From the IMG/VR virus record IMGVR_UViG_3300045988_026316: DNA of 64,000 nucleotides; one strand, given 5' to 3'. Made by a program: the position numbers and the translations under genes. The DNA is from a virus. The notes beneath the pieces were generated by a model. The model saw nothing but the letters and a program-made list of their open reading frames with translations, had not been told where the DNA came from and ran no database searches. This document shows positions 4,167 to 50,500 of the stretch, piece after piece. Numbering within the stretch: position 1 is the stretch's first letter; each line of letters opens with the position of its first letter.

Positions 4167-4233
4167 AGAGCCTCTTGTGCTAATCGCTACACCATAGGGC
4201 AGTATTAACCTCTTTCTTAAGGAGGTTAATTGA

Positions 4234-4452
4234 TTAAACAAATAATGAAATCACTCCTATTTGAAGTGCTTGTCCGATTAAACCACCTATTTCTGTAGCA
4301 GCTATATCAAGCCGATCGAACTTACCTCCCCATTGTTTATCTTTAAATTCCATCCCAAACGCTAGACCTGTACTGAATAATATCGTACCAACAAAAGCTG
4401 CAGGAATGGCGTACAACAAATGTTTTGGTCTATTAGATTCTTTTAGCCACAT
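4234..4452 (-). CDS. small membrane protein (two hydrophobic helices)
   Basis: The likely start is ATG 4452, because the track start at 4530 runs across the tRNA-like element. The hydrophobic segments are LLYAIPAAFVGTILFSTGLAFG and IGGLIGQALQIGVISLFV. It ends in TAA. Confidence 0.5.
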   Translation of the reverse strand: MWLKESNRPKHLLYAIPAAFVGTILFSTGLAFGMEFKDKQWGGKFDRLDIAATEIGGLIGQALQIGVISLFV

Positions 4453-4466
4453 ATTGTAGTTTTTTG

Positions 4467-4558
4467 CGCTGGGGGCAGGACTCGAACCTGCTTCCATAAG
4501 GATCCCATCTGGTATTATTCCAGACTTCACTTTGCTCTACCTCATAAGCTACTCCCGC
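4467..4558 (-). tRNA. aberrant type-II tRNA-like element (possible pseudo-tRNA)
   Basis: It has T arm GCAGG-TTCGAGT-CCTGC, D arm GCTT-ATGAGGTA-GAGC and a long variable arm. However, the acceptor GCGGGAG/CCCCAGC has 2 mismatches, 9 extra nt precede the anticodon stem, and the loop AATAATA has A33/T37. Confidence 0.35.
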
Positions 4559-8676: not shown

Positions 8677-9320
8677 TAGGATCACATGATAGTTATACGT
8701 TCCATAAAGCTACTAAGGGTATATACAATAAGTCTTTAATACGTAGAACATGGAAAGCTCAAAATATGAGTTTGGACGAACAGTATGAGCATGGAGTTCG
8801 TATGTTTGATGTACGTGTTTGTAGAGACGGATGGAGATGGAGAGTGTGTCATGGAGCGGCTGAGTTCAATGAAACATTTGCAACAATATTATCAATATGT
8901 CACTTCTTTGAGTTACGATATCCAGATGCTATCTATCGTATATGGCTCGAAAAAGGATCAAAAGATGTTGAGAGAAGGTTTATTGCAGAAAGTACAAGTC
9001 AACTCTGTTCGTTATGTGATTTATACCATAATCTATGGAGAGTTGGAATAAAATCGTATAAAGAATGGACGAACGGTATTTGTAACAACAATGATAGTTT
9101 ATACAACAGAGGTTATCTATTTGCTAAAGATGCTCCTTGGAGTGGTAATTGTCACGAGTTACACGGTACAATGTCTTTCAAGAATTACTTCAAAGGATCT
9201 CTTGAGTCTCAAGCTAAAAAGTACAACAGAAAGATTATGAGTACTGTTCCAAAAGATCAGATATACGGAAAAGAACATCTTTATCTGATTGATTTCGTAG
9301 ATCAAATACGCGTTAAATAA
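8673..9320 (+). CDS. PI-PLC X-domain-like phosphodiesterase (putative)
   Basis: GSHDSYT...QYEHGVRMFDVRV matches the N-terminal catalytic signature (G-x-H-D-S ... Q..G.R.FD.R) of PLC-like phosphodiesterases. Confidence 0.5.
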   Translation: MIGSHDSYTFHKATKGIYNKSLIRRTWKAQNMSLDEQYEHGVRMFDVRVCRDGWRWRVCHGAAEFNETFATILSICHFFELRYPDAIYRIWLEKGSKDVERRFIAESTSQLCSLCDLYHNLWRVGIKSYKEWTNGICNNNDSLYNRGYLFAKDAPWSGNCHELHGTMSFKNYFKGSLESQAKKYNRKIMSTVPKDQIYGKEHLYLIDFVDQIRVK

Positions 9321-9384
9321 ACGCGTATTTAAGATCAATTGCGTTGCAATTAAGATCAAATACATACTTAAACAAATTTATTCA

Positions 9385-9412
9385 GGGCCTACGTTAAGTA
9401 GGCTCTTTTTTA
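9385..9412 (+). terminator. rho-independent terminator
   Basis: Stem GCCTAC (9387-9392) pairs with GTAGGC (9398-9403) around loop GTTAA, followed by TCTTTTTTATT. Confidence 0.6.
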
Positions 9413-9414
9413 TT

Positions 9415-11520
9415 ATGCCTAAAATAAGACAAACAAATAGAATGATGAAAGTTGGTAATTAGTGGTTACCAGCTTTCTTAAACAGTGTCAACGGATCTCC
9501 AACATATACGTATATGAATGATTAGGGTCAGTGGGCTGATGCATCTGGTAATACGTACAACGTTGAATATCCATTAGATGAAGTAACTGTTAAATACGAT
9601 CCTAAAACAGGTGGGTATATCAATAAAGCTGCACCAGATTATTGGAGACAATATGGTCAGCGTAGAATGCAATAGACTGCTGGAAATGTTGACAAAGTTA
9701 TAATGGGTACCGTCGGAGCTGCTACAGCACCGCTATGGCTACCTGAGATATACGGAGCTGGGTTGGTACTTGGTGGTAATCCAGCTGTGCGATAGTTTGC
9801 AAGTCAGATATTGTACGGATTAGGTGCCGATGCAGCATTGAAAGCAACAACAGGTTATGATTATTCAGAAGCAGGTTAGAGGTTGTTTAGTCCTGTGATC
9901 CAAAAAATCGGTTTTAGTAAGGGTACATCTGATATTATCGGTCAAATTACAGGCGGTGCGATGAATCCTGGATATTACATGCCTGCAATAAAATTAAACG
10001 CTTAGAATATATTAGACCCTGTTGCGGACTATTTAGTTAAACCGTTTTCGTAGTATAGCAAAAAGCTTCAGATCTTAAATAACGCAGTTTATCCAACAAT
10101 CGGTACTCTGGCTGGAGGTGTTGCTGGAAATTAGCTTTCTAAACAAGACGTACTTCCTGAATATATGAGACCGTATGCTGAACCGGTTGGAATGTTATTG
10201 GGTGGTGGTATAGGTTCGTTGTTGAAGTATGCACCTATACCCAATTCTTATGTTTCAGATATGCTACGATATCCCATAATTGCACCGTATGAAATGGCTA
10301 GAGGAAACTATGTATTTGGGTCAAAAACTAAAGCTATGCTCGAACGTGCGAAACAAGAATCTAAATATTTTAACACGGCATATGATAATCTTGTTGATAA
10401 ATATATTAATAAAAAAGCGTATCCTGGGTTTGGGGATGTGAGGCCTAGGTTTGAAATGGAGATTGCCCCTAAAAACGGTAGTTACAAAGCTTATTATGAT
10501 TATCCAAGTAATACAGTAATAACGCCAATGTTTAATAACAAAAACACCAGAATAGCAATCCCGTTCGATATATATAGAAAAGGCACAATTTCACACGAAG
10601 CCACACATGCATTATACAATAGAGCTGCATAGTATAATTCATTTGATGGCGCGGGAGCTTTTACTAAACGAGGTATTGCGACCAATACTATGACACCGCT
10701 TTCTGTTGCCTTACCAGGAGAATAGTATTGGGAAATGAATCCTGTTTTACGTGATAATCCTGTATACAGAACACACTTGAATAATGTTGAAAACATAAAC
10801 ATCCCTCTATCACATAAACATGACGCTGCTTAGTATAAACAGTGGATGTCTAATCCGGAAGAATGGCATGCTGAATATAATAATATAATGAGTAGAATCA
10901 CCGATGGATCAACAGTTCCAGTGAGTGATCTGACTAGTAATCAAAGAGATATTGTTCTCAACTACTTCATGAATAAATTCGGGGCGAATAGAACCCAATC
11001 CAACCAAGCTCTCGACATGATAAATGCATATCAACGTGATGTCTTAAAAGGAGCTAATGTTAGCGCCAATATCACAAGACCTCATGCAATCAATCTCATG
11101 AATACGATAACGACCCCGCCCCCCAACGCTAAGACGATAAATTATGATCAATTACGTGATAACTTTAAAAAGTTTCGTAAGTATATCGAGAAATTAAATC
11201 ACATGTATGGAAAGGATGTGAAACGCATCGGTTTAGAATACGCAACAGGACAGGGATTAGAACGTATTGGAGATTTTATGATGAAACATACAATTGGTAT
11301 GGATTCAGACCAAGCATCTTACAAGCTATTATCTCCACTCGTGGAACCGTTAGATATCACAGATGGTTAGAAAGAAGGTTTATATAGATTTGGATCTCAA
11401 TATGTGAACCCGGGAAATTGGTTTAATCCATCGAAACGCTTAATTAACGGATATATTATCGATGACATGTATAATTTTGCACGGCTTCCATATGACTGGT
11501 TTACAAATCAGAAGAAGTAA
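9415..11520 (+). CDS. HExxH-motif protein (putative zincin-like metallopeptidase), 12 in-frame TAG
   Basis: The 701-codon frame runs from ATG 9415 to TAA 11518-11520 and joins track ORFs 10165..10632 and 10846..11370. It contains 12 in-frame TAGs and no TAA or TGA. The HEATH motif lies at 10594-10608. Confidence 0.7.
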
Positions 11521-12403: not shown

Positions 12404-12468
12404 GGGCATTATGGTACATTCTTGCACAAGTTGCTTGTAATGCACAGGTTCGATTCCTGTGGTGTCCA
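12404..12468 (+). ncRNA. D-arm-less tRNA-like element TLE1
   Basis: Acceptor GGGCATT/GGTGTCC has 4 Watson-Crick and 3 G.U pairs. The T arm is ACAGG-TTCGATT-CCTGT. The box ATGGTAC is shared with TLE2. The internal hairpin ACAAG-TTG-CTTGT is not an anticodon arm. Confidence 0.4.
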
Positions 12469-12547
12469 CTATCCCCCTGTGAAGGACGATTTTAAAATTC
12501 CCATATTCACAATCATGTTTAATATATGGCCCTTCGGGGTCATATTC

Positions 12548-12610
12548 GGGTGCTATGGTACTCTGTCAGATGATAGCGACAGTGCGTAGGTTCGATTCCT
12601 ACGGCATCCA
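12548..12610 (+). ncRNA. D-arm-less tRNA-like element TLE2
   Basis: Acceptor GGGTGCT/GGCATCC, T arm GTAGG-TTCGATT-CCTAC, and internal hairpin CTGTC-(10 nt)-GACAG. It ends 48 nt before ATG 12658. Confidence 0.45.
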
Positions 12611-17120: not shown

Positions 17121-17215
17121 ATTTCGTTTAATGTAGCCATCGAAAGATGAGAGTCACAAGCCTCTATAAATACAGAGTGAACGAACATATATGTTTAATT
17201 TAATTCATTATCAAA

Positions 17216-18906: not shown

Positions 18907-19338
18907 TCTATCATCAGATAGTATCTGTAAATAGAACTACAAAGTCCAACTCAAGAGCCTAAGAACCATGAGCGCTTTTGAAATATTAATAACCCGATGT
19001 ATCACTCAATATGACCGCAGATGGATCATGATTGTTTGGAGCCGTAGAAACGTATTTTAAAAGCATAAGAATCGACTTATCACACAGAGCCATGAGCCAA
19101 TGTGGGACGAAAACACTCTAACAGGGGTGGATAAACTACTGTCGTATCAAATGATCGAACATGCAAGAACTATAAGTCTTTAAGGCCCCTACATATGCGT
19201 GTAGGTTCCGTCTTGAAGTGTGTTTTATCAAAGAGAATATAGTTAGCCCAAACAGAATCTTGAATCAGTTTTGGAATCTCTAACTATCGCAGTATTTCGT
19301 AGCGTGCTGCATCCATAGGGAGTTTGGCCATTCTCTAT

Positions 19339-19399
19339 GGAACTATGTGTGGGGATGAGTTAATCATACAAGACGTGGGTTCGAATCCCACTAGGTCCA
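19339..19399 (+). ncRNA. D-arm-less tRNA-like element TLE3
   Basis: Acceptor GGAACTA/TAGGTCC pairs at 6 of 7 positions. The T arm is GTGGG-TTCGAAT-CCCAC, and there is an internal imperfect hairpin around AGTTAAT. Confidence 0.4.
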
Positions 19400-19626
19400 C
19401 GAATTCCATAAGTTTTTTAATTGATGTTTTTTAATTATTGTTTATTATCGTAACTCATAGGGTAACGGTTCGTGAGAATAGTTACTCATTTTATGGGCCT
19501 AACTGGTTTTGATTGTATGAGGAAGTAAATCCGTTAACTGCGCATTAAACATCAACTGGCGATTATAATATCGTAGATTACACTCACATAGCGTAAGTGC
19601 TAATCAGGTTCGACTACCAAAGTGTC

Positions 19627-19673
19627 ATGGGCGAGTAATAGGACTGTATGGGGTTCGATCCCCCACGCCCAAC
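19627..19673 (+). ncRNA. acceptor/T-arm minihelix TLE4
   Basis: Acceptor ATGGGCG/CGCCCAA pairs at 6 of 7 positions. The T arm is TGGGG-TTCGATC-CCCCA, with only a 15-nt connector. It ends 16 nt before ATG 19689. Confidence 0.4.
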
Positions 19674-19688
19674 TAAAACAGAATCAAT

Positions 19689-24262: not shown

Positions 24263-25900
24263 CAAGGTCTCCCTCGGTCAGTACATTTTAGTTATGTCTC
24301 ATTAGCATAGGTACTATATCGGTAAGACCACAGCTTGTCACTGAATCCGATGAATTAGACACGGTCGAGGATAATCAACCGTTAAACGACAACCAACAAA
24401 CTTGATCCGAGAATATGTTAACCCTCTCAAAGGGTGAGAAACTCAAAAGGTAGGATGAAATGCTATGAATGTGAAAAACTCATAGTAAGTAGGGTCAGCG
24501 TTGTATCAACCCTACTCTGTACATACATGAGAACCGTCTGGCGATGTGTGTATATGAAAAGACGCATAAGTCTCAAGAAGAGCAAAACGAACCGTATCGA
24601 TAAGTACAACAATGATACTAAGTTGTGCATTAACGTACACGAGTTGACATACATACAATTCCAACCTGTATGTAAGTATCAATAGCTTAGTTTAGTGTCA
24701 CACGCCTCCAAAGCGTGCATTGAGGAACGAAGAATTTCACGAAGACTATGAGAGTACTACTCATAGGGTGACCATTAGGATAGCCGTACGGAAGTCCCAC
24801 TGGTTCGATTCCAGTGATCTCAGTTGAATGGGAGACCGGGGATGGGGTGCAATAGTACAGAGTGAGACCGCCAGGCTTTAGTCGTTTATGCGGTATATAA
24901 AAGTAAAATGACCAGACTCTCGATGCAGGAGAGTAGTAGGAGTGAAAGCCTTACCCGACACGAGACCGGGTTCATAAGTCTGATGTTAAGTTTACAACTA
25001 GCCCTTAGCAAGCAATGTTGTATTCAAGCGAAAGCGAGTAGGGTGACGCCGGATAGTCAGCCTGAGCTACAGGATACGTAGCAAACAAAAAACAGAAGAA
25101 CTGATCGATTCGAAAACCAACATGCCAAGTTGGAAGGACCTCCGTCAGTTGTTAATACGAATAAGTTTTAGTAGTGTTAAGTATATATGGTACTTTTTAA
25201 GACTATGATACGAATGGTTTGGAGCCAGTAAAAATGTAGAATAAACGCCTACAAGTCGTAGCAGAATGCTTTTAACTTATCATATCAGTCTCCTTGACAC
25301 GAAATCAACCGACAGTCGTAGACGCATTTATAGAGTTAATTAACATGTTTAACAGTATGTCCTCCGGATGGAAGTAACGCTCACTATATCATACGTTGTA
25401 AGTATGTGAATGAGAATGGATAAGCTATCGTTGTAAGATAGACACTGCCTGTACCTCCCGGAAAGTTACTAATGGAATACACTATGTCGAATAGATAGGT
25501 AAAGCGCATACAGCAAATATGCGTGTATCGAGTCTATAGAACATATATCGTGAACCTAGTAGGCAGCTTCGTAGCCCATGAGACGCAGTGCAAAAGCGTA
25601 TGCAGGTTTGGTTCGGTAACGCGGCCATAATCACACTCCCCTGTCTCGGGATGTTGTGATAAGCAAGAAGTGGGTGATAATTAGTAATAGCGATAGGGTT
25701 GAAGTCCCAAGTAATATTTCATGAAAAAGAAGAACTGACAGCAAAGTCAGGGCAAAAAAGCCGTAGATACGCTTAGTATGTTCGATAATGAAACGCACTC
25801 CTCGCGTACTCTCTACTGGAAGAGAGCAGGGTAGGTTTTCGAGTAAGACGGATGATTTATGTCTCTACTATAATCATCTTGAGGAAACAATAGGCTTTTG
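24263..25900 (+). ncRNA. ~1.6-kb ORF-free, hairpin-dense region (candidate large structured RNA)
   Basis: No credible ORF lies on either strand. Many 5-8 bp stems are present, for example CTATGAG/CTCATAG, GTAGGGT/ACCCTAC, the GNRA hairpin GCGAAAGC, and the T-arm-like ACTGG-TTCGATT-CCAGT at 24799-24815. The box GTTTGGAGCC lies at 25217-25226. Confidence 0.35.
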
Positions 25901-26387
25901 TTGCTTTTAGCCTTTTATGCAAGCAACTCGGATGGAAACACAAAATATATCCGATCTTTCAATTTTCGTTGGTTAAGCCAGATTGAATCGAAATTTTGTC
26001 AACGTATTTATACTATGAGCATTAGTCGAGACGATTTGGTTGTTAGTAAGAATCATAAATACAAAAACTATTGGAGGTCTAGAAGAGTCCCTGAACCAGA
26101 CCTTCAAGAGTTATACGTATACACAGAAGTGTCAAGGATCATTCAAAGCTTTCCTGACGGTGACTATAGAGTAAGGGCTTAGCTAATCCTACCGTTGGAT
26201 TCCCAAATACACTGATTGAGCTTCTTAAAGGAATATAAAGGTGTAGGCTATAGAAAATAAAAGCGGCACACCATGTGTGCATCCTTTGAACGTATGACTT
26301 AAAACAAATAAACCGTTTCAGAGATAAATAACATTGTATAATTCGTATCGTTGGTCAATCACTGACGATCTCAAAGAGGATACGAAC

Positions 26388-27016: not shown

Positions 27017-27589
27017 ATGAGTGTGACATCCAATTGTATAACCGAAAACAGTAAGCTCCACATTCAGGAGATGCTTCTCACTCCTCAGATCAGTGAGACT
27101 GTGTATTCTGATGTAAAGAAGGGTAAGACCTATAAGCTTACACGGATCCGAAACGACGGATCAATTTATCTCGGTGAGACTTCTTATGAGTGGTGGAACA
27201 ATCTGTTCAACCTTAGTAAGGAGATCTCATTTGAGACGTTCTGTATGCGAGTATACGAGGCTATTGCCCAGATGGCTGGTGCAGAGGGCTCCGATACCCA
27301 AAAGACAATCATGCGTGGTTTGAATAAAGACATTCTTACTGCGCTAATAGCTACGAAAGATGTGAATATCGTGGTGGATCGTTTGTTCGATACACTGCGC
27401 TTCGCAATCGAATCTAGCCCCATGGCGTCTAAGGGGACTCCCTTACGGCGTGAGTCTGCTGAGGATATCCTTAGTAAACTAAAATTCACTGGAGGAGCCG
27501 ATCTTCCTGTATACGACTCCCGAGGCGACATTCTCGTGACACTTTACATGGAACCTACTGGATATAAGGTACGGCATGTGGACGATTAA
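27017..27589 (+). CDS. hypothetical protein
   Basis: Track ORF starting 2 nt after the previous stop. Confidence 0.65.
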   Translation: MSVTSNCITENSKLHIQEMLLTPQISETVYSDVKKGKTYKLTRIRNDGSIYLGETSYEWWNNLFNLSKEISFETFCMRVYEAIAQMAGAEGSDTQKTIMRGLNKDILTALIATKDVNIVVDRLFDTLRFAIESSPMASKGTPLRRESAEDILSKLKFTGGADLPVYDSRGDILVTLYMEPTGYKVRHVDD

Positions 27590-27599
27590 CTTGGGCTAA

Positions 27600-27913
27600 C
27601 CAGATGCTACAGTCATCTGTAGTTGCAGATCAATGCGTATCTGTAACATACCTTTATGTGAGCTCGTAACATATCGTATCATTAAACCAATAGACTTCCT
27701 ACATTATAAGCCAAAATGTTCTATGAACAACTTATGTTCCATATGCTGTAGTCATATGCCGTCTTAAGATCAATGCGTATCTTAAGAGCAAAGTTTGTAT
27801 GTTCAATGAACTAAGAGCTAACTCCAAACAACAACAATCACCCCTAAAGAACTGCGTTTGCGCTCCGTATGCTGTAGTCATACGCCTTTGTAAGATCAAT
27901 GCGTATCTTACAA
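27600..27913 (+). repeat. three copies of a ~49-nt two-hairpin element
   Basis: Copies lie at 27600-27647, 27739-27787 and 27865-27913. Hairpin 1 stems are CAGATG/CATCTG, CATATG/CATATG and CGTATG/CATACG, with loop CT(A/G)(C/T)AGT. Hairpin 2 has 8-bp stems that differ between copies, with the invariant loop CAATGCGT. Confidence 0.75.
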
Positions 27914-27935
27914 GTCAAGCTTACGCAGTTCACAC

Positions 27936-28007
27936 TGTCCCGTGGTGTAAATGGAAACACAACAGATTTTGGTTCTGTCATTCATGGTTCGAACCCATGC
28001 GGGATAA
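27936..28007 (+). tRNA. tRNA-Gln(TTG)
   Basis: Acceptor TGTCCCG/CGGGATA with a U1-A72 pair, D arm GTGT-AAATGGAA-ACAC, anticodon arm ACAGA-TTTTGGT-TCTGT, and T arm CATGG-TTCGAAC-CCATG. Confidence 0.85.
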
Positions 28008-28064
28008 CTAGGTAACTTACGAGGCACTCGAATTCAACTATGTTTTACTTTAAAGATATCAAAT

Positions 28065-28598
28065 ATGAAGAAGAATAAGAAGTTGAATGCCAATGATATT
28101 ATCAGCACTCGTAAGCGTCTCGATAGTGAGATTGCCACCTATTGGTCTTTTATCAAGGCCGAGAACACATTGCGTAATAACGCTCTGAAGTTTCGTACAC
28201 ACAATCTTCTGGAGCTATATAACCAAATTACGCAGAAGATTGAGCACCGAATCCTGATTAAGGGTTTGCTCAATAATCTTAACAACGACAAGCTTAGTTT
28301 TAGTAGTTCTGAGTTTATGAAGACTCATTACTATAACATTTTCCGTCTTCAGGAGTGTCAGGAGCAGATTACGAAGCTTAATGAGATTCGTAAACGCTGT
28401 CTTGCACCTCAATTGAAGGCTCAGAAGGGTAAGAAGGCGCTCGGTTATAACGAGGTGTTTACCCATGAGAAGATTTCATCTATCATCAACAAGCTTGAGT
28501 TGATGGTGGCATCTTGCAAGAGTGCAATTGCCAAGTATAATGACGAGACGCAGATTGAGATAATTGACAACAGTCTCGATGCCGTTCTTGCGGCATAA
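28065..28598 (+). CDS. hypothetical coiled-coil-like protein
   Basis: Track ORF. Confidence 0.65.
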   Translation: MKKNKKLNANDIISTRKRLDSEIATYWSFIKAENTLRNNALKFRTHNLLELYNQITQKIEHRILIKGLLNNLNNDKLSFSSSEFMKTHYYNIFRLQECQEQITKLNEIRKRCLAPQLKAQKGKKALGYNEVFTHEKISSIINKLELMVASCKSAIAKYNDETQIEIIDNSLDAVLAA

Positions 28599-28779: not shown

Positions 28780-29700
28780 ATGAACACATATAATATCGAC
28801 AAGCAGTTTAAGAAGTTTTGGAAGATTAGTCATACAAAGAGCGCATTGTTGTGGAAAATAATGTGTTTTTTGGAAACCAAAAGAGGTCAATCATTCGTTA
28901 ACAACCTGCACAAATTCTCTTTGAAAGAGCTTGGCATGAGGTACGGTATGAACCTTATGACTATTAACAATAGTAAGGACGTATATACAATCATCGATAA
29001 GGCGATGAATCTGTGTAACATGAAACCTACTCCAGGAGCCCCGTATAAGCCCTGGAATGTACCTGAGAAGCCAAATTATCCCATGTACCTTACAAGTGGA
29101 CGTCAGCCCATTAAAACGATCCATACGGCCGTTTATAGGCGTTTTCCGCACACTAAGAAGGTTGAGGACTATGGTTGGGACATCAAGTATCGTGATATCT
29201 CTGACGTAGGATTGTTGGATAACAAGCGTATTTATTGGCGATATGAGTATTATCGTGATTATACGAAACTTCTTGAGAAACATAAGATGGAGCGTTGGGA
29301 GCGTAAGCACCCACGTCCTACGGATACGATGCTGAAACAAGACCTCTTCCCTGAGATGCTAACAGCAGCATGGAAGAAGCGAGAGGGTGAAGCACATAAC
29401 TACATACGTAATCTTGTGAAAGAAAAGTATGACAAATCATCTGTACCGTGTATCGCACGAGTCAAGAACTATGATGGCACGTACAAGAATGAGATTGTGA
29501 GTTGGATCAGTGATCCGCATAACAATATCGGTCGTATAAACAATGACGACTATGCAAACAACTCGTTAGTTCGTACAGGAGCAAAAGATCTCCTGTCATA
29601 TTCCATGAACAAAAATGTTGTATGCGGGTACATACAGAATCGAACTCAGACGTTAGGTCGTACATTGACGATGGACATGATTCATCAGATTGCTGCCTAA
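28780..29700 (+). CDS. hypothetical protein
   Basis: Track ORF with the upstream box CATTATCAAAATG. Confidence 0.65.
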   Translation: MNTYNIDKQFKKFWKISHTKSALLWKIMCFLETKRGQSFVNNLHKFSLKELGMRYGMNLMTINNSKDVYTIIDKAMNLCNMKPTPGAPYKPWNVPEKPNYPMYLTSGRQPIKTIHTAVYRRFPHTKKVEDYGWDIKYRDISDVGLLDNKRIYWRYEYYRDYTKLLEKHKMERWERKHPRPTDTMLKQDLFPEMLTAAWKKREGEAHNYIRNLVKEKYDKSSVPCIARVKNYDGTYKNEIVSWISDPHNNIGRINNDDYANNSLVRTGAKDLLSYSMNKNVVCGYIQNRTQTLGRTLTMDMIHQIAA

Positions 29701-29705
29701 CGTGA

Positions 29706-29744
29706 GACCTATTTAGCACTATAATGGTGCTAAATAGGTCTTTT
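29706..29744 (+). terminator. strong rho-independent terminator
   Basis: A 14-bp stem GACCTATTTAGCAC/GTGCTAAATAGGTC with loop TATAATG, followed by TTTT. Confidence 0.7.
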
Positions 29745-29825
29745 GCGAATGTGGTGGAACGGTAGACACGTAACACTTAGGATGTTATGCTAAATAGCGT
29801 GCAGGTTCGAGTCCTGTCATTCGCA
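29745..29825 (+). tRNA. tRNA-Leu(TAG), type II
   Basis: Acceptor GCGAATG/CATTCGC, anticodon arm TAACA-CTTAGGA-TGTTA, variable arm GCTA-AA-TAGC, and T loop TTCGAGT. Confidence 0.85.
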
Positions 29826-29936
29826 CAATGCATATTGATTGATTTTAAGTTTTTAGTTATTGGAATTTCTTATAAACAAGTCTGTGTCACAAGCGTGTGA
29901 TGAAAATACTCAGGTGTGTGAACATATGAGTATCTT

Positions 29937-30009
29937 GACTCCGTAGCTCAGAGGTTAGAGCAGGGCATAGTTAATGTCAAGATCACAGGTTCGAGTCCTG
30001 TAGGAGTCG
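29937..30009 (+). tRNA. tRNA, probably Asn(GTT), atypical anticodon loop TAGTTAA (A33)
   Basis: It forms a standard 73-nt cloverleaf with D arm GCTC-AGAGGTTA-GAGC and T arm ACAGG-TTCGAGT-CCTGT. Position 33 is A rather than U, and the 7:66 pair is G.A. Confidence 0.55.
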
Positions 30010-30139
30010 CTTTGGTTAATTGTCTTTTTATTAGCATTTTTTACTTTAAATTAAGGTTCTGCAATGATTTGATGATACCACAAAAACATAGTTGCTGTGA
30101 AACAGCTATGTTTTAGCACTAACAGCGGTTAGTGTATTT

Positions 30140-30212
30140 GCCTCTTTAGCTCAGTTGGTAGAGCACGGGCTTTGTACTCCCGGGGTCGTTGGTTCGAATC
30201 CGACAAGAGGCT
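30140..30212 (+). tRNA. tRNA-Thr(TGT)
   Basis: Acceptor GCCTCTT/AAGAGGC, D arm GCTC-AGTTGGTA-GAGC, anticodon loop TTTGTAC, and T arm GTTGG-TTCGAAT-CCGAC. Confidence 0.85.
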
Positions 30213-30218
30213 CTATAT

Positions 30219-30304
30219 GGCGTGATGGTGAAAATGGTAGACACGATGGATTTAAGATCCATTGGCCAGTAATGGTCGTGTGGGTTCGAACCCCACTCGC
30301 GCTA
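30219..30304 (+). tRNA. tRNA-Leu(TAA), type II
   Basis: Acceptor GGCGTGA/TCGCGCT with 2 G.U pairs, anticodon arm ATGGA-TTTAAGA-TCCAT, long variable arm GGCCA-GTAA-TGGTC, and T arm GTGGG-TTCGAAC-CCCAC. Confidence 0.8.
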
Positions 30305-30390
30305 CGTGTTATTTTGTTTTTCCATTAGTTACAACATGTGGTTTTTTTCCATTTATTTCTCATACGGTCTGTGAAGATAGTATGAGACCC

Positions 30391-30678: not shown

Positions 30679-30730
30679 AGGGCAGAGTGGTTCGAAAATT
30701 CGAGAAAGGGTTCGACTCCCAACTGCCCTC
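30679..30730 (+). ncRNA. weak tRNA-like minihelix TLE6
   Basis: It has a 7-bp acceptor-like stem AGGGCAG/CTGCCCT, but only a 3-bp T-like hairpin GGG-TTCGACT-CCC. It ends 25 nt before ATG 30755. Confidence 0.25.
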
Positions 30731-36939: not shown

Positions 36940-37006
36940 CTCGTGAACGGTTTTCCTTAGTTTGTGTGTTTAATAGGGAAGAGAGGTTCGATTCCTCTCC
37001 ACGAGA
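36940..37006 (+). ncRNA. D-arm-less tRNA-like element TLE7
   Basis: Acceptor CTCGTGA/CCACGAG pairs at 6 of 7 positions. The T arm is AGAGG-TTCGATT-CCTCT, and a 7-bp stem with a 17-nt loop replaces the anticodon arm. It ends 24 nt before ATG 37030. Confidence 0.4.
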
Positions 37007-40821: not shown

Positions 40822-43800
40822 TCAGAAGTCGTCTGTAAAGCCTTCGTTACCGAAATCATCCGTAAATTCATCATCAGAAACCTTGGATTGATTATTCTCA
40901 ACCCATTGTGTCTTTTTAGGAACGATGAAGTTATTAGGCGATTGTTGTAAATAGAAGTTTGTGGTGGATTTAATACCTTCTACATGTAATCCTTTAATGA
41001 GTGCATCTGCAGAAGTATTTTGGAATATTTTAAAAATATCCTTAGTGAATCTATTAAAACCTTTATATCCACCTTGTTTGACCTCCTCATCTGATCTATC
41101 GTTGATGATATCCATTGGAATATCCATCCATCTATTCAAATTTTCAATATACGATTTTGCAACAGACGGTGTACTAAGTATATCCATAACAACGCCTGGT
41201 GAATACGCAGAAGCTCGCTCTTGAAACAACTTTAACGTAAATGCAAGCATGTGCCAACGAGCTAGATTCTTAGTTGCCTAATCCATATTACTTGTGTCTA
41301 CGTCAATTATAGGTTTTCCATTAAATGGAAGTAAGTCGATAACCCATTCAGGATCTTTATCAGGATCATCTCCATCATGACCATATGTAAACGGAACAAC
41401 AAATCCTAACAACGCTACAACAATACCAGCCAATATAGTCATATCAGCAATCGTTCTACGAACAGCATATCGTTGATTGTCTGTATATTCAAGATTCATA
41501 CCAGATTGTTCAGACTTCTTTTTCCATCCAATAGCTTGACTTAACCAAGTTCTACGTAACCACTTCTGACAGCCACGTATAAAGTCTTTAAACACAGCCC
41601 CATCAAACTATCCTGTTGATAGATTTTCGTAACCCATTTGATCTCCAACATGTCCGTATTCACTAGACCAGCTTATGTTTTCATTCTTATTGTTGAATTT
41701 AACATAATCAATACCGTTGTTTCCAAACATGTCCCAATATCGATTTACGAAGAATCCACGCATCAATAAGAAGAATGAACCCCATATGTTCTAAGATAAG
41801 AATGCTTTTTCAGACTGATGAACAACTCCATTATATACGGATGTGCGATCATGTAATAGTTTAGCCATTCTGTTCTTAAGATCTTCTGTGACGTATTGTT
41901 CATACTCTTTTTTAACAGAGAAGTTACCATCTTTGTCAAACTCATAAGCATCCCACAGTGTTATTTCTGATCTTTTCCAAACACGTTTACCAGCTTTACG
42001 ACCAAGCTTCATATTATTCAGAATATTACGCTCCATATCAATGATTTGATTACGAGACATAAACTTCTTCTCACCAGTTGTTAGATCTTCAACAAGCTTA
42101 AAATGTCTATAAAAAGCAATCAGCGTTGATGTGTTAATCATATAATCAGCTAACGAATATCCAGCCATTCTTCCAAAGAACATGTGTGCAAGTTTATTTA
42201 GCTTACTACGATCTGTTTGTTTAAATATACCATGTATATCTTTATCACCAGCCTGATTATATCGCATAGCTGCTTCGAGCTTGTTATGAGCTTCTCTAGC
42301 TCCTATGTTGAAAAACGATTGCAGCGAATATATCATTGCATGTGTCCATCCGTATATGAAATCTGAAACGGTCATATATTTACCACCAATAGCGTCAACA
42401 AATGAGCTTATCCATGCATCAGCATAACCGACAGTCATTACCGTGATATTGTTACCCAAAAGAGCAACTGTTGCCAAAGAACGTATTGTTTTAGCACGTT
42501 GTTGAATGGTTTTATCTGACTAAGCATCACGTTTGCTTTTAGTTCTAATCTTAGCAGATGTCTCTTGACCAAATACACGAGAATCAAGTATGTTCTTAAG
42601 TTTCTGAGCTTGCTTACCTTGATCTGTACGTAACTATTGGTTACCACCAGGTTCTGTTGTTTCAAGGGCTCTTTGTAAAAGTTCCCACGATGCAACATGC
42701 TTAGATTTGTTGTTAAAGTTAGCAGCCATTTGATAATACATAATAACAGATCCTAATACATCTGTTGTTATCAAAGATGGATCTTCTAATCGTTGTACCC
42801 AACGAACTGGTAGGTTTGTAATAGGAGTACCATCTGGTCTACGAGGAATATCTAAGTTACTAGTTGCATCTGCATGTTGTTCAGAATATTTACCGCTAAA
42901 TGCATCAACACCCATGTATTTAATAGTTTTCCACATATTACCATTAAACATGTTACGATACAACATTTGCATCTTGTCGCCAGTTATTTGTGGTAATAAT
43001 TCTGATCGCTCTGAAGCATGTTGAGGTATATATGAATTAGCCTCATCCATAGTGCTTTTCAATGCGTTTAAGAATTGCATGTATTTACTATTCTTAGCCA
43101 ACTTATCATATTTATCATTATGATAAATATCCTCATGTGGTTGTACGGGATGATTATCGTTTGAATCAAAACCTTTGTGATTTACAAAGTCTGATGCTTC
43201 ATCAAGTTCTTGATAATCACTTATTGGAACTCTTTCAATCAGTTTATACGTCTTACCACCCTCAGATATTGTATCAAGTTTTGGTGCTAAATATGAAAAC
43301 GCACTTAACTATACAGTTCTACCACTTTCGTCGACATACGTAAATAAATCTGCAAACTGTTGATACATTGCAGGATTAGTTGCACCAACTTTATTATACA
43401 CTTGCGATAGATAGTTGAAATACGCAGTACGACTACCATCTGTTGTAACACACTGAATCATATCAGCAAATGTCTTGAAGGGAATTTTAGGTTTTGTTTT
43501 AGAAATCTTACCTTGTTCAATAAGCTCACGTTTAACCTTAGCAATCTCCTAGTCGATTCTCTTAAGCTCCCTCCACATAGATGTGTCAGTTGATAATCCA
43601 GTACCAGCTTTATCTAAGTTAGGTTGATAGAACCCGAGTTTATATTTCATAAGATTTATAAGCTCTTTCTTACGCTTATTTAAAGCGTCTAGTCTTGGAT
43701 CTTTATACTTACGACCTAACTGTGATAAAAGATCATAAAAGTCATCGGTAAGTTGTGTAGAAGTATTATCATTTATGAACCTATTACGTTCGTTAGGATC

Positions 43801-46800
43801 TGTTATTTCTGATAAACGTTTATTATAAACATCATAGTTGATTTTAAACTTAACATGATTTTTTATAAATGCGTACCAATCAGAAAGTTCATCAGCTATA
43901 CGTAATGCATCACCTTCTTTTGCTCGTACATTTGTTATTCCGTCTGAATCAACCCATGATTCATAGTGTGAACTAAGAGCATTCTTCTATCTTCGTAATA
44001 CTTCAAGCTACCTCTTCTCTTGAGGAGACAATAAGTTTGTGTTGATAAATCCATCCTTATCACGTATATTTTTGGTTATAAGATTTATATTACGATTTAT
44101 CTGATTCAGAGCAATAAGTGTGGATCTTGACAAATAACGTCTACGCTGTTTATAATAATCAACAGTATATCGTCTATTCGAATGTGTATCCAACCAATCA
44201 TCTAACTCATCGTAATATTGATTATAAACAGACTTATCTGCAAGTTCGTCATCATCATGAAACTAGACATTACCTTCATCGTCGAATGTTATAGCATGAG
44301 CTCCGTATTTATCAACGTTTGAGTATTTCTCATTTAACTATGCAATGATTTCATCACGATCTTTATAGAACTATCCGTAGTTAATAGGTCGTATAAAGTA
44401 TCCAGTTGGAGCACCTTTTTTATCAAGTTCCATGAACTATTTTTGAAAGTTCAATATACTTAATTGAGAGCCTATAGGTCGTATCTCGTTATACATTCTA
44501 ACGAGTTTGTTGCCAACACTTAATGTTTGACGATGAGTTTCAAGATCTGCATTTTTAATAGCATCATCGATCATACGTATAAGTGAAGACCTACTACGAG
44601 AAGCCATACCTATCCAAAATTCACCAGAATTTAGTTGTCCATACATATATGAACCCTCTAAAAACTCATAAGCTCTTTGTCTAAAAGCTGCTTTATCTTT
44701 AAGATCTAATGTATTTACAGTCTGATCTATATAATATTTAGCATATGGATGAAGCAGATGTGTTTTATATGTATCATATAATGTGTTTAACGCTACATTT
44801 AATTGTTGACAATATGCAGCAAGGTCAACTCTACCATCTGGGTTTAAACTATACCAATATTTGTTATACTGAGAAACAGCCGATGTTGGAGATGAAAATA
44901 GTTGATTTATATATGAGAATAATAGCTGATAATGACCTAACAAATCTCGTTCTAGAGATATCAACATATCTGGGTTCCACTCAGAAGGATTCTTATGAAC
45001 AATAGATTGTATATATTGATATACATGTGCGATATCGCTATCAGCATTACGTAACGAATCAAATAGTGCATCATACAAATCTTCAACCTTGTCACCATCA
45101 TATTGTTCAAATCGTTCAATCTGGTTCTTAAGTCTAACTATTAATTTCTCATTACGATTCTTTTTAGCTTGAGAAGCTTTTAAACGACTTGTTGTACTAG
45201 AATGTAGTTTGTGCAATATATCACGATCTTTTTCATTTAACAACAGAGATGATGAATAATCACCAACAGCTCTATCGTATATAATCTGTACATTCTAATC
45301 GTGATGGAGTTCTGCATTCCACATTTGTGCAGCACGTATAGCGTTAATAACTTCTGCTTTTTGTTGATCAGTAATAGTCTTAACACCAAAAACGCTCTTA
45401 GCTAATTTGGTAAGATTATCCCAGAAGCTAGCTATATAATCAAGTATAGACTTGTTGTTTATACGATCGTTGATGTTTTGATCAGTGACGGCATTTACTA
45501 AAGCTCTTTCAAGATATTCAGACGTCCTAGAACCAGTGTCATTGAATATATCTAAGCCTTTTTGAATAAGATCAGAATTCCAAAATAAACGAATATAATC
45601 ACGAGCAATTGCTTTATCAACAGCTACTATATCACATTCAATGAAAGCTTTATATAAAGCTGTTGTTACATTGTTATAATCACTAACACCAGCTACTTCA
45701 TGATATAGCTCGGAATATTTAGAACGATATTTCTACCATGTATCCTCGTTTAGTTGATTTATAGTATATTCTAAAAAATCATCTGTTTTACGATGTCTTG
45801 TTGCAACGTAGATACCATCGACATACTATAAGTTGTAACGATTAGCCAATAACTATTGTACGGACTTAAGAGAATCTTTCATACGATGACTATCATACTC
45901 GACAATCTTAGCAGCTCTTGTTTGATTATCCCAACCTGTTATAGATTTATTTATCTTACTACTAACACTTACGAAAGCATCTTCTTGAGACTTTAGCCAT
46001 CTATCTTTTTCGGATTTAACCTAATCAAATACATCAGATATACTCTTTAAAAACAGTTGGTTGCTTAATGAAAAACGTTGTTCAAAATCAGAAATTGTTT
46101 TAAGCTCAACAAACTACACATCATCTGATAATATCAGTTCTGTGAGTCTTTTAAAACCAATACCTTCAGCCAAGTTTTCAGCTGTGATTTCATATTTCTG
46201 TATGATAGCATTAAACTTAGGAACGCGCTTTAGATACCCGACAATACCTTTAAACAAATCTAAAACTTTATCTCCGAAATTATATTTAGCTTTAGATTTC
46301 TTTTTATCTGAAAAGCGATGTTTAAACTCATCAAATACGTATCTACTCAACGCCTGAGTAACCAACTCTTCATCTTGGTGTTCTTTATACAAAGCGTTTA
46401 TTTCAAGATTCAATTCTTTAAAATTATCCTTTGCAAACGATAAGAGTCTTTTGAATAATTCAGGATTATCCTGCTTAATATTGTATATAAGAACGTGCAA
46501 CATTTCTTCAGCTAGAATCTAACCGTTAAACCTACCAGCACGCAAGTATATTGTATTACCAGCAATGAACGAATTAGCAGATCTTGCTTCAATACCAGTA
46601 CCTTTTCCAACAGACCAATCTGATAACTTATTCCATGTTTCTTCGCCAGCAACAATTATTTTAAACCTGTTTCCAAATACGTCCTATAGCTTTTGTTTAA
46701 AAGCTCTTAGCATATCGTCTGGATTCCCAGGCTTGAATAAGTCACGGGATATTATATCCTTGCGATCTACTGTCAAAGGCTTTTTAGACTAGCTATATGC

Positions 46801-47517
46801 TTGTATAATAGTATAACCACCTTGGAAAAACCATTCATTACCATGTCTTATATATTGACGTGTTGGGTTAATTCCACGATTATTCAAAAGTTGTCTGGCT
46901 TCCTTAACAGCTCTATATGTATGACCAGTTTGTGTTTTGTTTTCCTCAAACCAGTTGATCATTGATTGTACATCAAGACTGTATCGTAAACCACCCTGTA
47001 ACGGACTTATTGTACCGTCTCTGTTGATAGATCTTATGTTATACTGATCTGCAACGTTGACAACAACGTTGTACGAGTCATCATCAACTATAGATAGTGA
47101 TTTATCTAATGTAGATACGTAACATGGATATACGGAAGAACTTGTATCTGATAACGATATTGCCTTATTTGTAAAGGCTGTAGATGGTTCGTTAGACTCA
47201 TAAAACAAAACCCTCGGTTCTCCGTTAGAATCAACAGATGTACTTTTATAATCAAGACCGGTGAGCCAATCTCCAAACCAATCTTTAAAATATTGTGTGT
47301 ATGTTACAGACTTAGCTTTTATAGCCTATGATCGATCTCCATATAACGATTGGAGATTTGAAAACAAAGTAGAGTCGGCTCCGTTAGGAGCCTTATCTAC
47401 CATGTATCCATTATTAAGTGACCATACAGCATATGCACCTACTTCACCTAAAGTAGACACAAGCTCATTAAACTCTTTAGCTACGTCTGGATTACTTAAA
47501 TTAGGACAAAAATACAT
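40822..47517 (-). CDS. giant virion (polyvalent/ejected-type) protein, ~2230 codons, 23 in-frame TAG
   Basis: Twelve track ORFs from 47326..47517 down to 40822..41250 are all in one frame, separated only by TAG. The start is ATG 47517 and the true stop is TGA 40824..40822, next to the terminator. The FKDWFGDW motif is shared with the upstream giant gene. Confidence 0.75.
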
Positions 47518-47518
47518 A

Positions 47519-50500
47519 TTAATTACCTTTACAATGTTTCATAATATCATCGTTAAACAACGATTGTTGACGAGAATCATCATACTTAACATCAATAGAT
47601 TTGATTATAGGAATTGCAACGTCGTCATATGACTTTTTCTAACAACGCTTCTAAAGCTCAAAACCTATATAGTGTGCGACAAGTCCTCTAGCGTCATCAT
47701 AATTCATATAATCTGCAAGCATTAGTAAAATACTATTTGGCACAGTACCAAAGCTTAAAAGATTAAATAATGCTTCTCGGTCATATGAATACAGTATTCG
47801 TGATATCTTTTCACGTACTACTTTATCAGAAACCTCTAAATAGTTATCAGCATTAAAAATATTAGCAGCTATATTTATCGCATCAATGAGCGATACTCCA
47901 GTTATGAACGTTTCTCCTGTTATAACAGGTGTTATATATTGTTCTTCATTTGGAGAAATAGCTTTTATTTTATCTATAGCGCGCTAGACATCATCAGATA
48001 GTTCGATATCATTATCATGTTCAACAAAACCTGTTATGTGTAGTTTATTCCATAATGGTAAATGCGCATCTGATTCGTTATACGCAACTTCAGCGTTACT
48101 TGTTATGAAATCCCTCAGCGGCATATGATTAAAGTCTTTTAATGTCAGAGTTTCAATGTCTGCATAAGACCAATCAGAGAATGTTTGCTTAAGGCTCTAC
48201 CAGAACTTAAGAATCCAATCCTTAAGCTTGGATATTATATCAGAAGATCCTTGCTTAGCTTCAATCTCTGAAATAAGTTTAGCACCGCCTTCACCAACAA
48301 GCCTTGCATGAACCTCAGAAGCAATCATAAACTCACGCTGTGCATCAGACATATTAGACCACTTCTTACCATAGAACTCACTATTAGCTATTTCATTCCA
48401 AAGCTTACCACCATTGAATTGTTTCATTAACTCAACACCACGTATCCACAAAGATGGGTTTTTCAGAGCCACAACTCTATCCCAAATGTGCGTATATTCA
48501 TGTATAGGATGTTCTGGCTTAATCTTATTTTTATCAAGATGTATAATACCAGCGTCATCAACATATCCATAGACAACACCTTTTGAATCTTTAAAGAAGT
48601 GAATGTTGTTATTAGTTCTTGAGAAAGTTGTATTTTCTCCACCAGCTGATTTAATTTGATTAGGAGATATGAAACTATAAGAAATACCACCTCCTTCTGC
48701 TTTATTTTCATATTTTGTGCCATCGTATCCTAAAGAAAGCATTAACTTTCTTAATTCAGAATTAGATATTCCTCTAAGAGACGAATATCTCTCTCTAGAA
48801 ATAATGCCTTGTTTATATAACTCTGACAACATATAACTTGCAGTTTCATGTACAAAATCATCTGTATACAGTGGGTTTCTTGCGTTGAGGAATAAAGCAA
48901 GTTGATTACCTTTAATCGTATTAGCAGTTTCCTGTGTTCCTACATGGCCAAAAGGTTCTGACATACCTGGAAGAATCCTTGACTCGTGATCCATGTCAAA
49001 TACGCTAAACTTAAAAGGAGTATTGTGGTACACTACCAACGGTTCACCATTCTCATCAATTACTTTCGATGCATTCTTAGGATCATTCTACCAATCACCA
49101 AACCAATCTTTAAACTCTCTAGTTCTTACTTGAGCATATAGACGTTCTGGTAAATTAGATGGTTTACCATTAGGAGCTAACAGTCTACCTTTAGAATCTC
49201 TTGGAGCTTCATCTAAGATAGTCTACAATCTCTGTTCATAATCATCTGTTTCAGTAGAAATAGTATTCGGTCGTTCTATAGCAAACTGATAATCTTCATT
49301 CCTTTCAATATCATTCTTGTCGATACCGTATACAGTAAAACCACTATCTTTAAGGTGTTGAACAAGTTGTTCTGTTACTGATTTTTCAGAGCTATCAGTG
49401 CTAGTAGGTGTACTTGTTTGAGGTTGAGTAGTACTCTGGGATTTACGTAACTCGTCACGAACCTCCATTAATAATCTTGGGAATTCAGTCTTCCATTTAG
49501 ATTCATCTTGGTTATGCGTGAGTGTAGCATTACCAGTGTCGAGAAGCCTTTGAGCTGCTTGAGGATTTTGTTCAAAAGATTCTTTAAGCAGCTGTTTCAT
49601 GACATTATAAGAATTAGCATCCCATTTAGTAACATCCAATTCTTTTATCTTATGCCCAAGATTCCTCAATTTTGATCCAGATGTTGTGTTCATTATATCA
49701 TTAAGGGTGGTACTATTAACACCTTGTTTTGCAAACAATGCTCCTTTAATATAATGAAACGCCTGTTCTACAGATTGGAATGTCTTCTGAGTACTATCTT
49801 CGAATGTATGAACAAACGGTCTTATTGCAAAGTTACTTAATTCAGCATTTTCTTCAGATTTAAAGTATATATTGATAGGTTTATAGTTTGACTAAGTCTG
49901 TTGCTGAGTCTTATTAGCAGTACTTGGTTGATTACCAGTATTGATAGGTTGTGCTTGATCATCATCAGTAATAGCTGCTGCTACACCACCAGTTTGCTCT
50001 GTTCGTAGATCATTCAATATTGCAGTATACTCATCTCCGAAATTCTTTTTTATTGCAGGTAGTTGATTTATAAAATCTGCTGATTCTACAAAGGCTCGTA
50101 ATGCACCTTGGTTTACAACATACTCTGTACTAGATGGAGTTGAATCATTACGACCATATTCTGTAACCATGAATCCTCCAGATACTTTAGTACCCTTAGG
50201 CTGTACGAGCACATATACAGGATACATAATACCACTATCGTGTCTTGCAAATCCATATAGTTGATATACATTATATTGACGCTGTGAATCATAGTGGTTA
50301 TACGAACGTGGTATCTTTATGAACTTTGGTGAGCTTTCAACTGCAATACTAGGTTCATACATACCCTCATCATTCTTTTTAAGAGCTGCTAATATTGTAG
50401 GATAAGCTGATAACGTTTGCTTATTACCATTAACAATATTCATCTTAGCGACACCTATAAAGTTAGAAGACCTCTTACCATTAGCATCTTTTGAATAGAA

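Follow-up and report, generated by a model that had tools for sequence, protein, structure and literature searches.

In plant mitochondria, t-elements are reported to guide the cleavages by RNase P and RNase Z from which mRNA ends arise (PMC1920247). In MALAT1 and MEN-beta, an RNase P cut is made at the tRNA-like mascRNA and a compact structure stands at the upstream 3′ end. To our knowledge, tRNA-like punctuation that comes with a protective structure has so far been known from organelles and MALAT1. Here we describe a bacteriophage locus that may follow the same logic. It lies in a 64,000-nucleotide stretch of DNA (hereafter the window) from the virus record IMGVR_UViG_3300045988_026316, read from its sequence as a TAG-recoding crAss-like phage, and comprises three copies of a two-hairpin element placed upstream of tRNA-Gln, within the block of replication genes. 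The crAss-like phages are the most abundant human gut viruses, and the processing and regulation of their transcripts are almost unknown.

As with t-elements, degenerate tRNA-like structures with a GGTTCRANYCC T arm are found between genes in the sense orientation, and the window holds several tRNA-like elements besides true tRNAs. The differences are that the setting is a bacteriophage and not an organelle, that cleavage is predicted here, and that a covarying helix or three-way junction stands 0-5 nucleotides (nt) before the tRNA-like element. The likeness to MALAT1 and MEN-beta lies in the protective structure found directly upstream of the predicted cut, here an outer helix, P1, 4 nt from tRNA-Gln; there is no homology, and the structure is a three-way junction or hairpin instead of a triple helix.

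The tRNA cluster of phage T4 also encodes small, structured and stable RNAs, species 1 and 2 (rnaC/rnaD), beside its tRNA genes. They resemble our locus as structured RNAs of unknown function that are presumably freed by the tRNA-processing machinery, but they are not multi-copy hairpin modules, and no relation in sequence or structure is expected. Finally, the study of the crAss-like phage phi14:2 described abundant intergenic RNAs of unknown function and early promoters that share no motif; in the long intergenic RNA regions of phi14:2 we found no similar hairpin family. The region described below is a previously undescribed structured RNA of crAss-like phages, and we infer that it is of the kind of tRNA-linked processing and stability structures.

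Three two-hairpin copies in a single gap

The gap between the open reading frame (ORF) at 27017-27589 and tRNA-Gln contains three units of ~48 nt on the + strand, each made of two hairpins (given as stem/loop/stem):

27601-27619, + strand: copy 1, hairpin 1, CAGATG/ctacagt/CATCTG
27622-27647, + strand: copy 1, hairpin 2, GTTGCAGAT/caatgcgt/ATCTGTAAC
27740-27758, + strand: copy 2, hairpin 1, CATATG/ctgtagt/CATATG
27762-27787, + strand: copy 2, hairpin 2, TCTTAAGAT/caatgcgt/ATCTTAAGA
27866-27884, + strand: copy 3, hairpin 1, CGTATG/ctgtagt/CATACG
27887-27914, + strand: copy 3, hairpin 2, TTTGTAAGAT/caatgcgt/ATCTTACAAG

This is the arrangement that the original prediction had described upstream of tRNA-Gln, with which coordinates, folds and the shared core 16-mer all agree. 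The unit starts lie 139 and 126 nt apart, leaving spacers of 92 and 78 nt between copies. In hairpin 1, a stem of 6 base pairs (bp) closes a 7-nt loop that reads CTACAGT or CTGTAGT; 2-3 nt further on, hairpin 2 has a stem of 8-10 bp and an 8-nt loop (CAATGCGT). Using ViennaRNA, each unit takes the predicted fold with z-scores of -2.2 to -3.1, and in loop 1 the first C pairs with G while the final U is left bulged. The sequence directly 3′ of the hairpins is CATAC, GCAAAG or GTCAAG.

The core 16-mer, AGATCAATGCGTATCT, occurs exactly three times in 64 kb, each time in this gap. Among related IMG/VR contigs, 7 have three exact core matches and 2 have two, the latter because copy 2 carries a single loop change there. 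A covariance model trained on the three copies gives them E values of 1e-16 to 1e-19 and finds no fourth copy in the 64-kb window. In the window the copies are confined to this gap, and covariation is seen across relatives. A dispersed repeat (REP/MITE) or a CRISPR-like array was considered and rejected, given that there are only three copies in a single gap and that the stems differ between copies.

Comparison with known families gave no counterpart. Positions 27400-28100 have no match in Rfam 15 up to E = 10 except tRNA-Gln, and in the equivalent regions of 10 relatives the only Rfam hit is a chance-level mascRNA match on a tRNA-like minihelix (in L047: 25.7 bits, E 0.43, sub-threshold and reflecting tRNA likeness only). 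A megablast of 26-30 kb against INPHARED returned no match, and the literature searched contains no account of such an element.

The copies belong to a wider conserved region beside a tRNA or tRNA-like element

We collected the same gap, between the upstream gene A (the ORF named above) and the downstream gene B, from lineages whose flanking proteins are 41-79% identical. The relatives are contigs of 95-103 kb, and the gap was also taken from the annotated Oafivirinae phages cr7_1 and Bohxovirus. Based on this comparison, the three copies are parts of a larger conserved structured non-coding region of ~350-480 nt in the replication-gene block, and this region is coupled to a tRNA or tRNA-like element, which the original prediction had missed. 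In the window, its parts are as follows:

27595-27600, + strand: single-stranded flank GCTAAC, a few nt after the gene A stop and directly before copy 1 hairpin 1
27601-27647, + strand: module e1 (copy 1), made of hairpin 1, a TA(G) linker and hairpin 2, then the conserved CATAC flank
27740-27787, + strand: module e2 (copy 2), built from the two hairpin types seen in e1; particular to the window lineage
27849-27931, + strand: module e3, a three-way junction with copy 3 as its core
27849-27861 with 27919-27931, + strand: P1, the outer helix of e3
27866-27884, + strand: P2 of e3, which is copy 3 hairpin 1
27887-27914, + strand: P3 of e3, which is copy 3 hairpin 2
27936-28008, + strand: tRNA-Gln(UUG)
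28008-28037, + strand: conserved trailer CTAGGTAACTTACGAGGCACTCGAATTCAA, kept in all relatives

Module e1 has tandem-hairpin orthologs in L052, L055, L056, L071, L072 and L051, and lies just 3′ of the gene A stop codon in every relative that has it. The two hairpins are bracketed by conserved unpaired letters in the order CTAAC, hairpin, YAG, hairpin, CATAC, and CTAAC is invariant in 7 lineages. When 7 lineages are aligned on these anchors, 96.3% of cells are paired, compared to 38-47% with slid partners, and 12 of the 17 pairs have changes on both sides. The covariance model made from the window copies alone detects e1 of L052 (E 1.4e-4).

At the position of e2, six relatives (L052, L055, L056, L071, L072 and L090) have a different two-hairpin module. 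It reads GATATT, hairpin, G GTT.., hairpin, ..AACAAAATC, and its stems covary:

L052 2185-2250; L055 2233-2290; L056 2205-2260; L071 1159-1215; L072 1138-1195: replacement module

For e3, 10 lineages folded independently by minimum energy all arrive at this junction (z -3.1 to -6.5), with 4-15 pairs in P1 (11-15 in 9 of the 10), 5-8 in P2 and 8-13 in P3. The same three-way architecture is found in cr7_1 and Bohxovirus. Plain MAFFT/RNAalifold on the real sequences recovered P2 and the base of P3 only, with 8 of 11 pairs compensated, and the N-padded junction alignments were shifted by MAFFT and excluded from counting. Because the MAFFT alignments recovered only part of the structure, the evidence for the junction rests on the independent folds and their z-scores. 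The bounds given earlier, 27600-27913, are exceeded at copy 3, where the element together with its outer helix spans 27849-27931.

Downstream of P1 the region abuts a tRNA or a tRNA-like fold (acceptor stem and T arm GGTTCRANYCC) in the sense orientation. The end of P1 lies 4 nt from tRNA-Gln in the window and 1-5 nt from a tRNA-like minihelix, an odd tRNA-like fold or a long hairpin in relatives. At the tRNA-Gln position, L047, L053, L055 and L051 have an acceptor stem and T arm only, and L052, L056, L071 and L072 have an unusual tRNA-like fold without an ARAGORN call. A conserved TTCRANT loop tops the T-arm stems, which covary. The acceptor stem plus T arm of L047 and L055 is what we take to be the classic minimal RNase P substrate. 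In three further lineages the position is held by a 10-bp hairpin whose 9-nt loop, CUUGAGUAA, is identical while the stems covary:

L044 1247-1275; L073 1399-1427; L074 ~1370-1400: 10-bp hairpin at the tRNA-Gln position

After the tRNA or tRNA-like element, the trailer CTAGGTAA...GAATTCAA is present in all lineages; it may mark a site of processing or contain the promoter of the next gene. TATGTTT, GAATTCAA and CTAGGTA are not motifs spread genome-wide. Scans of the gap for sigma-70 and Bacteroidota-type (TTTG ... TAnnTTTG) promoters yielded nothing usable, and a scan of the + strand at 27590-27935 found no terminator-like site and no U tract after any hairpin.

The combination of a helix followed by a tRNA is also seen elsewhere in the window. 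Leaving aside tRNAs that follow another tRNA, nearly all have a stable helix that stops 0-4 nt short of their first base; at random positions a comparable helix criterion is reached in about 11% of cases. For example, the helix before tRNA-Leu at 29745 has 18 bp (-25.9 kcal/mol) and a gap of 2 nt. The pattern holds at tRNA-Asn, Thr, Met, Val and Gln and at a tRNA-like element at 30679, and also at tRNA-Trp in L055 and L056.

29695-30390 and 2550-2600: helix-then-tRNA sites (tRNA-Leu, Asn, Thr, Met, Val and the tRNA-like element 30679)

We also noted T-arm motifs (stem-GGTTCGAnTCC-stem) that are not called as tRNAs at 12447, 12589, 24802, 30709 and 36985 (+ strand). At least 12547-12610 and 30679-30729 fold tRNA-like. 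The motif at 30709 closely precedes the DNA polymerase gene, and the one at 36985 the primase gene. On the - strand, 4467-4558 gives a weak tRNA match (29.4 bits) with a 35-nt insert in the anticodon-arm region and no ARAGORN call; it could be an intron-containing or suppressor tRNA.

Stems change with pairing kept and loops are maintained

The three copies are under selection on structure, with the loops maintained. This supports the compensatory stem changes proposed in the original prediction, and several comparisons lead to it. Taking the closest diverged relative, L089 (gene A protein 79% identical), together with the window gives five distinct copies, in which 98.7% of cells are paired versus 25-51% with slid partners; both-sided changes affect 9 of the 16 pairs, a count reached in 0 of 500 shuffles. 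The alignments behind these pair counts were made by hand and padded with N.

All stem differences among the copies and relative to L089 keep pairing. In hairpin 1 of copy 2 the loop-closing G-C becomes U-A, in hairpin 2 of the same copy an A-U becomes G-C, and in hairpin 2 of copy 1 AGAU/AUCU becomes GGAU/AUCC. The loops CAATGCGT (three times) and CTGTAGT (twice) are unchanged; the loop of copy 1 hairpin 1 is CTACAGT in the window and CTATGT in L089. In e2, four of the five changes form two compensatory pairs, with identical loops, and the only two changes in e3 form one compensatory pair in P1. Identity to L089 along the region is:

e1: 82%
spacer 1: 70%
e2: 90%
spacer 2: 67%
e3: 98% (97.6%)
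third codon positions of gene A: 51%
third codon positions of gene B: 81%

A similar contrast is found within the population. Among 18 near-identical haplotypes, stems and loops have 3 variable sites in 137 nt compared to 14 in 153 nt of spacers, and the flanking genes have ~11 variable sites per 100 nt. The loops, called invariant in the original prediction, are not strictly so in the population, where copy 2 has CAATACGT in two strains and CCGTAGT in one.

Loops are shared within a genome and differ between lineages

Across lineages, the loops are shared between the hairpins of one genome and are different from one lineage to another:

window: CTGTAGT and CAATGCGT
L044, L047, L052: CTGTGT
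L051, L055, L071, L072: CTTTGT, CTATGT, CATTGT and similar, C(T/A)NTGT
L073: CAGCGT (twice)
L056: varied loops; stems AGATG/CATCT shared
cr7_1 and Bohxovirus: every one of the seven apical loops is C(UGAG)G, C(UGCG)G or C(CGAG)G, + strand

Hairpins with a C...GT loop are enriched ~23-fold on the + strand of the gap (20 in 4.5 kb versus 20 in 102 kb in the remainder of these loci), a figure to be taken with care since the loop motif was defined after seeing the data; the - strand of the gap has one. We suggest that the conserved loops may be where a single common partner binds, probably a protein, and that this partner would co-evolve with the lineage.

Two known loop types invite comparison. 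The loop of the iron-responsive element is a pseudo-triloop, CAGUGN. The loops of relatives are often C-NNN-G-U, for which ViennaRNA predicts a C:G closure and a bulged 3′ U; the likeness is one of formal geometry only, and the window loops are of 7 and 8 nt. The anticodon loop of a tRNA is 7 nt long, with U in second and a purine in sixth place. CUGUAGU fits this form, but mimicry of an anticodon arm was rejected because the copy 1 loop of L089 has 6 nt and those of relatives 3-8 nt.

Several lines of evidence suggest that the modules act as RNA of the sense strand rather than as DNA. The YNMG tetraloop is an RNA-type motif, and on the + strand of cr7_1 and Bohxovirus each of the seven apical loops is a tetraloop of the form C(YNMG)G. 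The anchored e1 helices have 8 G-U pairs versus 2 A-C mismatches, and the long-range helix P1 covaries. Moreover, the orientation is fixed, being that of the genes and the tRNA, and the region abuts tRNA-like elements.

Proposed role and alternative explanations

Among the roles listed in the original prediction, RNA processing or stability fits the anatomy best; attenuation (no U tract) and hairpin promoters are not supported. We propose that the copies work as RNA of the sense strand, helping to process, stabilize and insulate transcripts in concert with cleavage by RNase P, and we give this reading a probability of about 0.5. The gap would be transcribed rightward together with the neighbouring genes, and RNase P would cleave where the tRNA or tRNA-like element begins. 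The RNA upstream of the cut would then end in the very stable P1 helix and a tail of 1-5 nt. For PNPase, RNase II and RNase R to engage, the single-stranded 3′ tail must be longer; therefore such an end should resist 3′ exonucleases. P1 may also keep the tRNA from mispairing with upstream RNA, and copies 1 and 2 could serve as internal decay barriers or insulators of the same build, while the conserved loops would contact a common partner, presumably a protein. Some lineages retain P1 although their tRNA is reduced to what we take to be a minimal RNase P substrate, which implies selection for processing rather than for decoding.

A number of points weigh against this proposal. Transcription through the region, the RNase P cut and the stabilizing effect are all predicted, and conserved loops would be superfluous in plain decay barriers or insulators. 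The RNase P argument bears directly on copy 3 only, since 130-330 nt separate copies 1 and 2 from the tRNA. The helix before a tRNA is not universal: tRNA-Leu of L089 lacks it and tRNA-Ser of L088 has a 7-nt gap. Minimum energies of the whole region favour the + strand in 7 lineages and the - strand in 5, and the window's own - strand folds slightly better, so that thermodynamics alone does not pick the strand. The pair counts from hand-made, N-padded alignments depend on the chosen anchors. Finally, family and fold searches of genes A and B gave no candidate loop-binding protein.

The shared loops could also be the primary feature. The region would then be a stand-alone RNA scaffold or sponge whose hairpins, with 5-6 copies of one lineage-specific loop, bind and titrate or recruit one RNA-binding protein of phage or host; the tRNA-like element would merely release and stabilize the RNA. 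This overlaps with the processing reading, differing in that protein capture comes first, and we regard it as possible though clearly the less likely of the two. Loops that are common within a genome and different between lineages, that are kept as stems change, and that are enriched on the + strand of the gap all speak for it, as do the very abundant intergenic RNAs of phi14:2; set against this are the post hoc choice of the loop motif, the searches that gave no binding protein and the short, heterogeneous loops of L055 and L056. The YNMG tetraloops of distant relatives resemble stability caps and not recognition sites, and duplication with gene conversion could explain shared loops. Recent duplication without function would also account for loops common to the three copies and for a lineage-specific copy 2. 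We consider such a neutral origin very unlikely, given that compensatory changes keep pairing in every copy, that orthologous modules persist down to ~40% protein identity, and that population variation is below that of spacers and coding sequence. Pairs of nascent-RNA stem-loops with an assigned function are known from phage HK022, where put sites span ~70 nt, with two stem-loops ~1 nt apart, and lie between an early promoter and terminators. A put-type antitermination RNA, which binds the elongating RNA polymerase as a transcribed unit and here would let it pass the tRNA, tRNA-like elements and terminators further on and enter the replication genes, shares with our element the two adjacent sense-strand stem-loops (2-3 nt apart here), more than one copy per phage and covarying stems, in an operon rich in strong helices. 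Yet the unit is ~48 nt, promoter and terminator scans revealed no such setting, copy 3 is part of a three-way junction abutting a tRNA, unlike put sites, and no sequence or model-based link was found, which makes this explanation improbable.

Much the same estimate applies to single-stranded DNA hairpins acting as virion RNA polymerase promoters, as in phage N4, or as priming or origin signals. Promoters of N4 have a stem of 5-7 bp and a 3-nt loop with a central purine, are on the template strand and lie near the genome end. The parallel is that three hairpin elements would be recognised by shape and a few bases, and that gp66, the crAss-like virion polymerase, transcribes single- but not double-stranded DNA in vitro. 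The stems are also nearly all Watson-Crick, with G-U making up 12 of the 281 pairs in the three-way junctions; a mirror structure of almost equal stability can form on the - strand, and the site is within the replication-gene block. However, the loops here are 7-8 nt instead of 3, the hairpins are paired and placed mid-operon, and a junction closed by a long-range helix of 9-15 bp would be hard to extrude from duplex DNA. The sense-strand YNMG tetraloops of relatives point to RNA, the early transcripts of phi14:2 have no common upstream motif, cumulative GC skew turns at ~6 kb and 40 kb, away from the element, and the coupling to the tRNA 5′ end is tight. The hairpin promoters for a phage RNA polymerase suggested in the original prediction are accordingly not supported. 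The same prediction pointed to ATGTTC(T/A)ATGAAC as a conserved start before copies 2 and 3, and to an 11-codon mini-ORF that could tie the hairpins to TAG decoding. The motifs exist (27717 and 27799) but are 23 and 67 nt upstream of the two copies, hence out of register, and they are not kept in L089. The mini-ORF likewise exists (27717-27752), and TAG recoding is real in this phage, being seen in minus-strand late genes; a leader-peptide attenuator or TAG-decoding sensor built on it nonetheless has almost nothing to commend it, because the mini-ORF is at copy 2 only, its ATG and ATGTTCNATGAAC motif are lost in L089 with the hairpins kept, relatives with other loops have no TAG there, and no hairpin is followed by a U tract.

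If the processing reading is correct, a bacteriophage uses tRNA-like punctuation with built-in protective helices, as a counterpart of the tRNA punctuation of mitochondria, and the element offers a small and defined RNA for studying RNA-end formation in Bacteroidota hosts. In any case, a covarying RNA structure absent from Rfam is conserved from this phage to annotated Oafivirinae genomes, and its lineage-specific shared loops are a handle for finding the RNA-binding factor. More speculatively, and with no great expectation of being right, we suggest a new non-coding RNA family of Suoliviridae-like crAss phages: a modular RNA would be freed through a degenerate tRNA handle by host tRNA-processing enzymes, and the loops of its 4-6 hairpins would co-evolve with a phage-specific partner that is titrated or recruited to time the switch from replication to the TAG-recoded late genes. 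Units of a helix plus a tRNA-like element may, in this scheme, punctuate the early transcript.

Flanking genes and other features of the window

The genes on either side of the region are:

27017-27589, + strand: gene A, upstream, 190 aa, conserved and syntenic
28065-28598, + strand: gene B, downstream, 177 aa, modelled as a helical bundle, also conserved, with synteny reaching Suoliviridae/Oafivirinae

Neither has a Pfam or PHROGs match. In a fold search of the PDB, the AlphaFold model of gene B (pLDDT 80) yields nothing significant and nothing better than E 0.13; the model of gene A is poor (pLDDT 52.6). The nearest annotated relatives of gene B are in Crassvirales; Suoliviridae; Oafivirinae, at ~40% identity.

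The assignment to a TAG-recoding crAss-like phage is supported by these relatives, by giant minus-strand ORFs that are open only with TAG as sense (40822-47538, 47519-52753 and 53519-64000) and by a plus-strand block at 7-41 kb encoding a DNA polymerase, a DnaB-like helicase, a primase and a nuclease. The TAG-recoded late ORFs (40822-64000, - strand) have ~1,700 to >3,400 codons. The plus-strand block mostly uses the standard code, and 9289-11520 also needs TAG as sense. A replication origin at the element was rejected since there is no skew turn at the site, and a hammerhead or twister at this site was rejected since no model matches.

Elsewhere in the window, a type-P1 twister match at 17125-17183 (+ strand; 56.6 bits, E 4.7e-10) is below the Rfam gathering score of 67.2; it is in the sense orientation, within the early-gene block. 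Two group I intron matches on the - strand, at 53511-53636 (45.8 bits, E 1.9e-8) and 52765-52797 (25.2 bits), fall between the giant ORFs 47519-52753 and 53519-64000, which suggests one intron-split giant gene. On the otherwise densely coding + strand, 1.7 kb at 24686-26387 has no ATG ORF of at least 70 aa, with the T-arm motif at 24802 inside it, and could be a non-coding RNA, an intron or a recoded gene. The segment 12000-14000 forms an island of 51.5% G+C in a genome of 33-44%, with two tRNA-like elements and overlapping ORFs on both strands.

Finally, we found a permuted two-piece transfer-messenger RNA (tmRNA) at 19310-19687 (+ strand), with the ARAGORN tag GDYNIVDYTHIA* and an Rfam tmRNA_permuted score of 39.9 bits (E 1.6e-4). 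Its first T arm is followed by ACTAGGTCCACGAATTC (19390-19406), which is similar to the trailer after tRNA-Gln. In phi14:2 (L086, NC_021806), ARAGORN likewise calls a tmRNA at 4031-4500 with the tag GSSVQKLAMVA*, within a long intergenic region reported to yield an abundant RNA, where the record NC_021806 has no RNA annotation.

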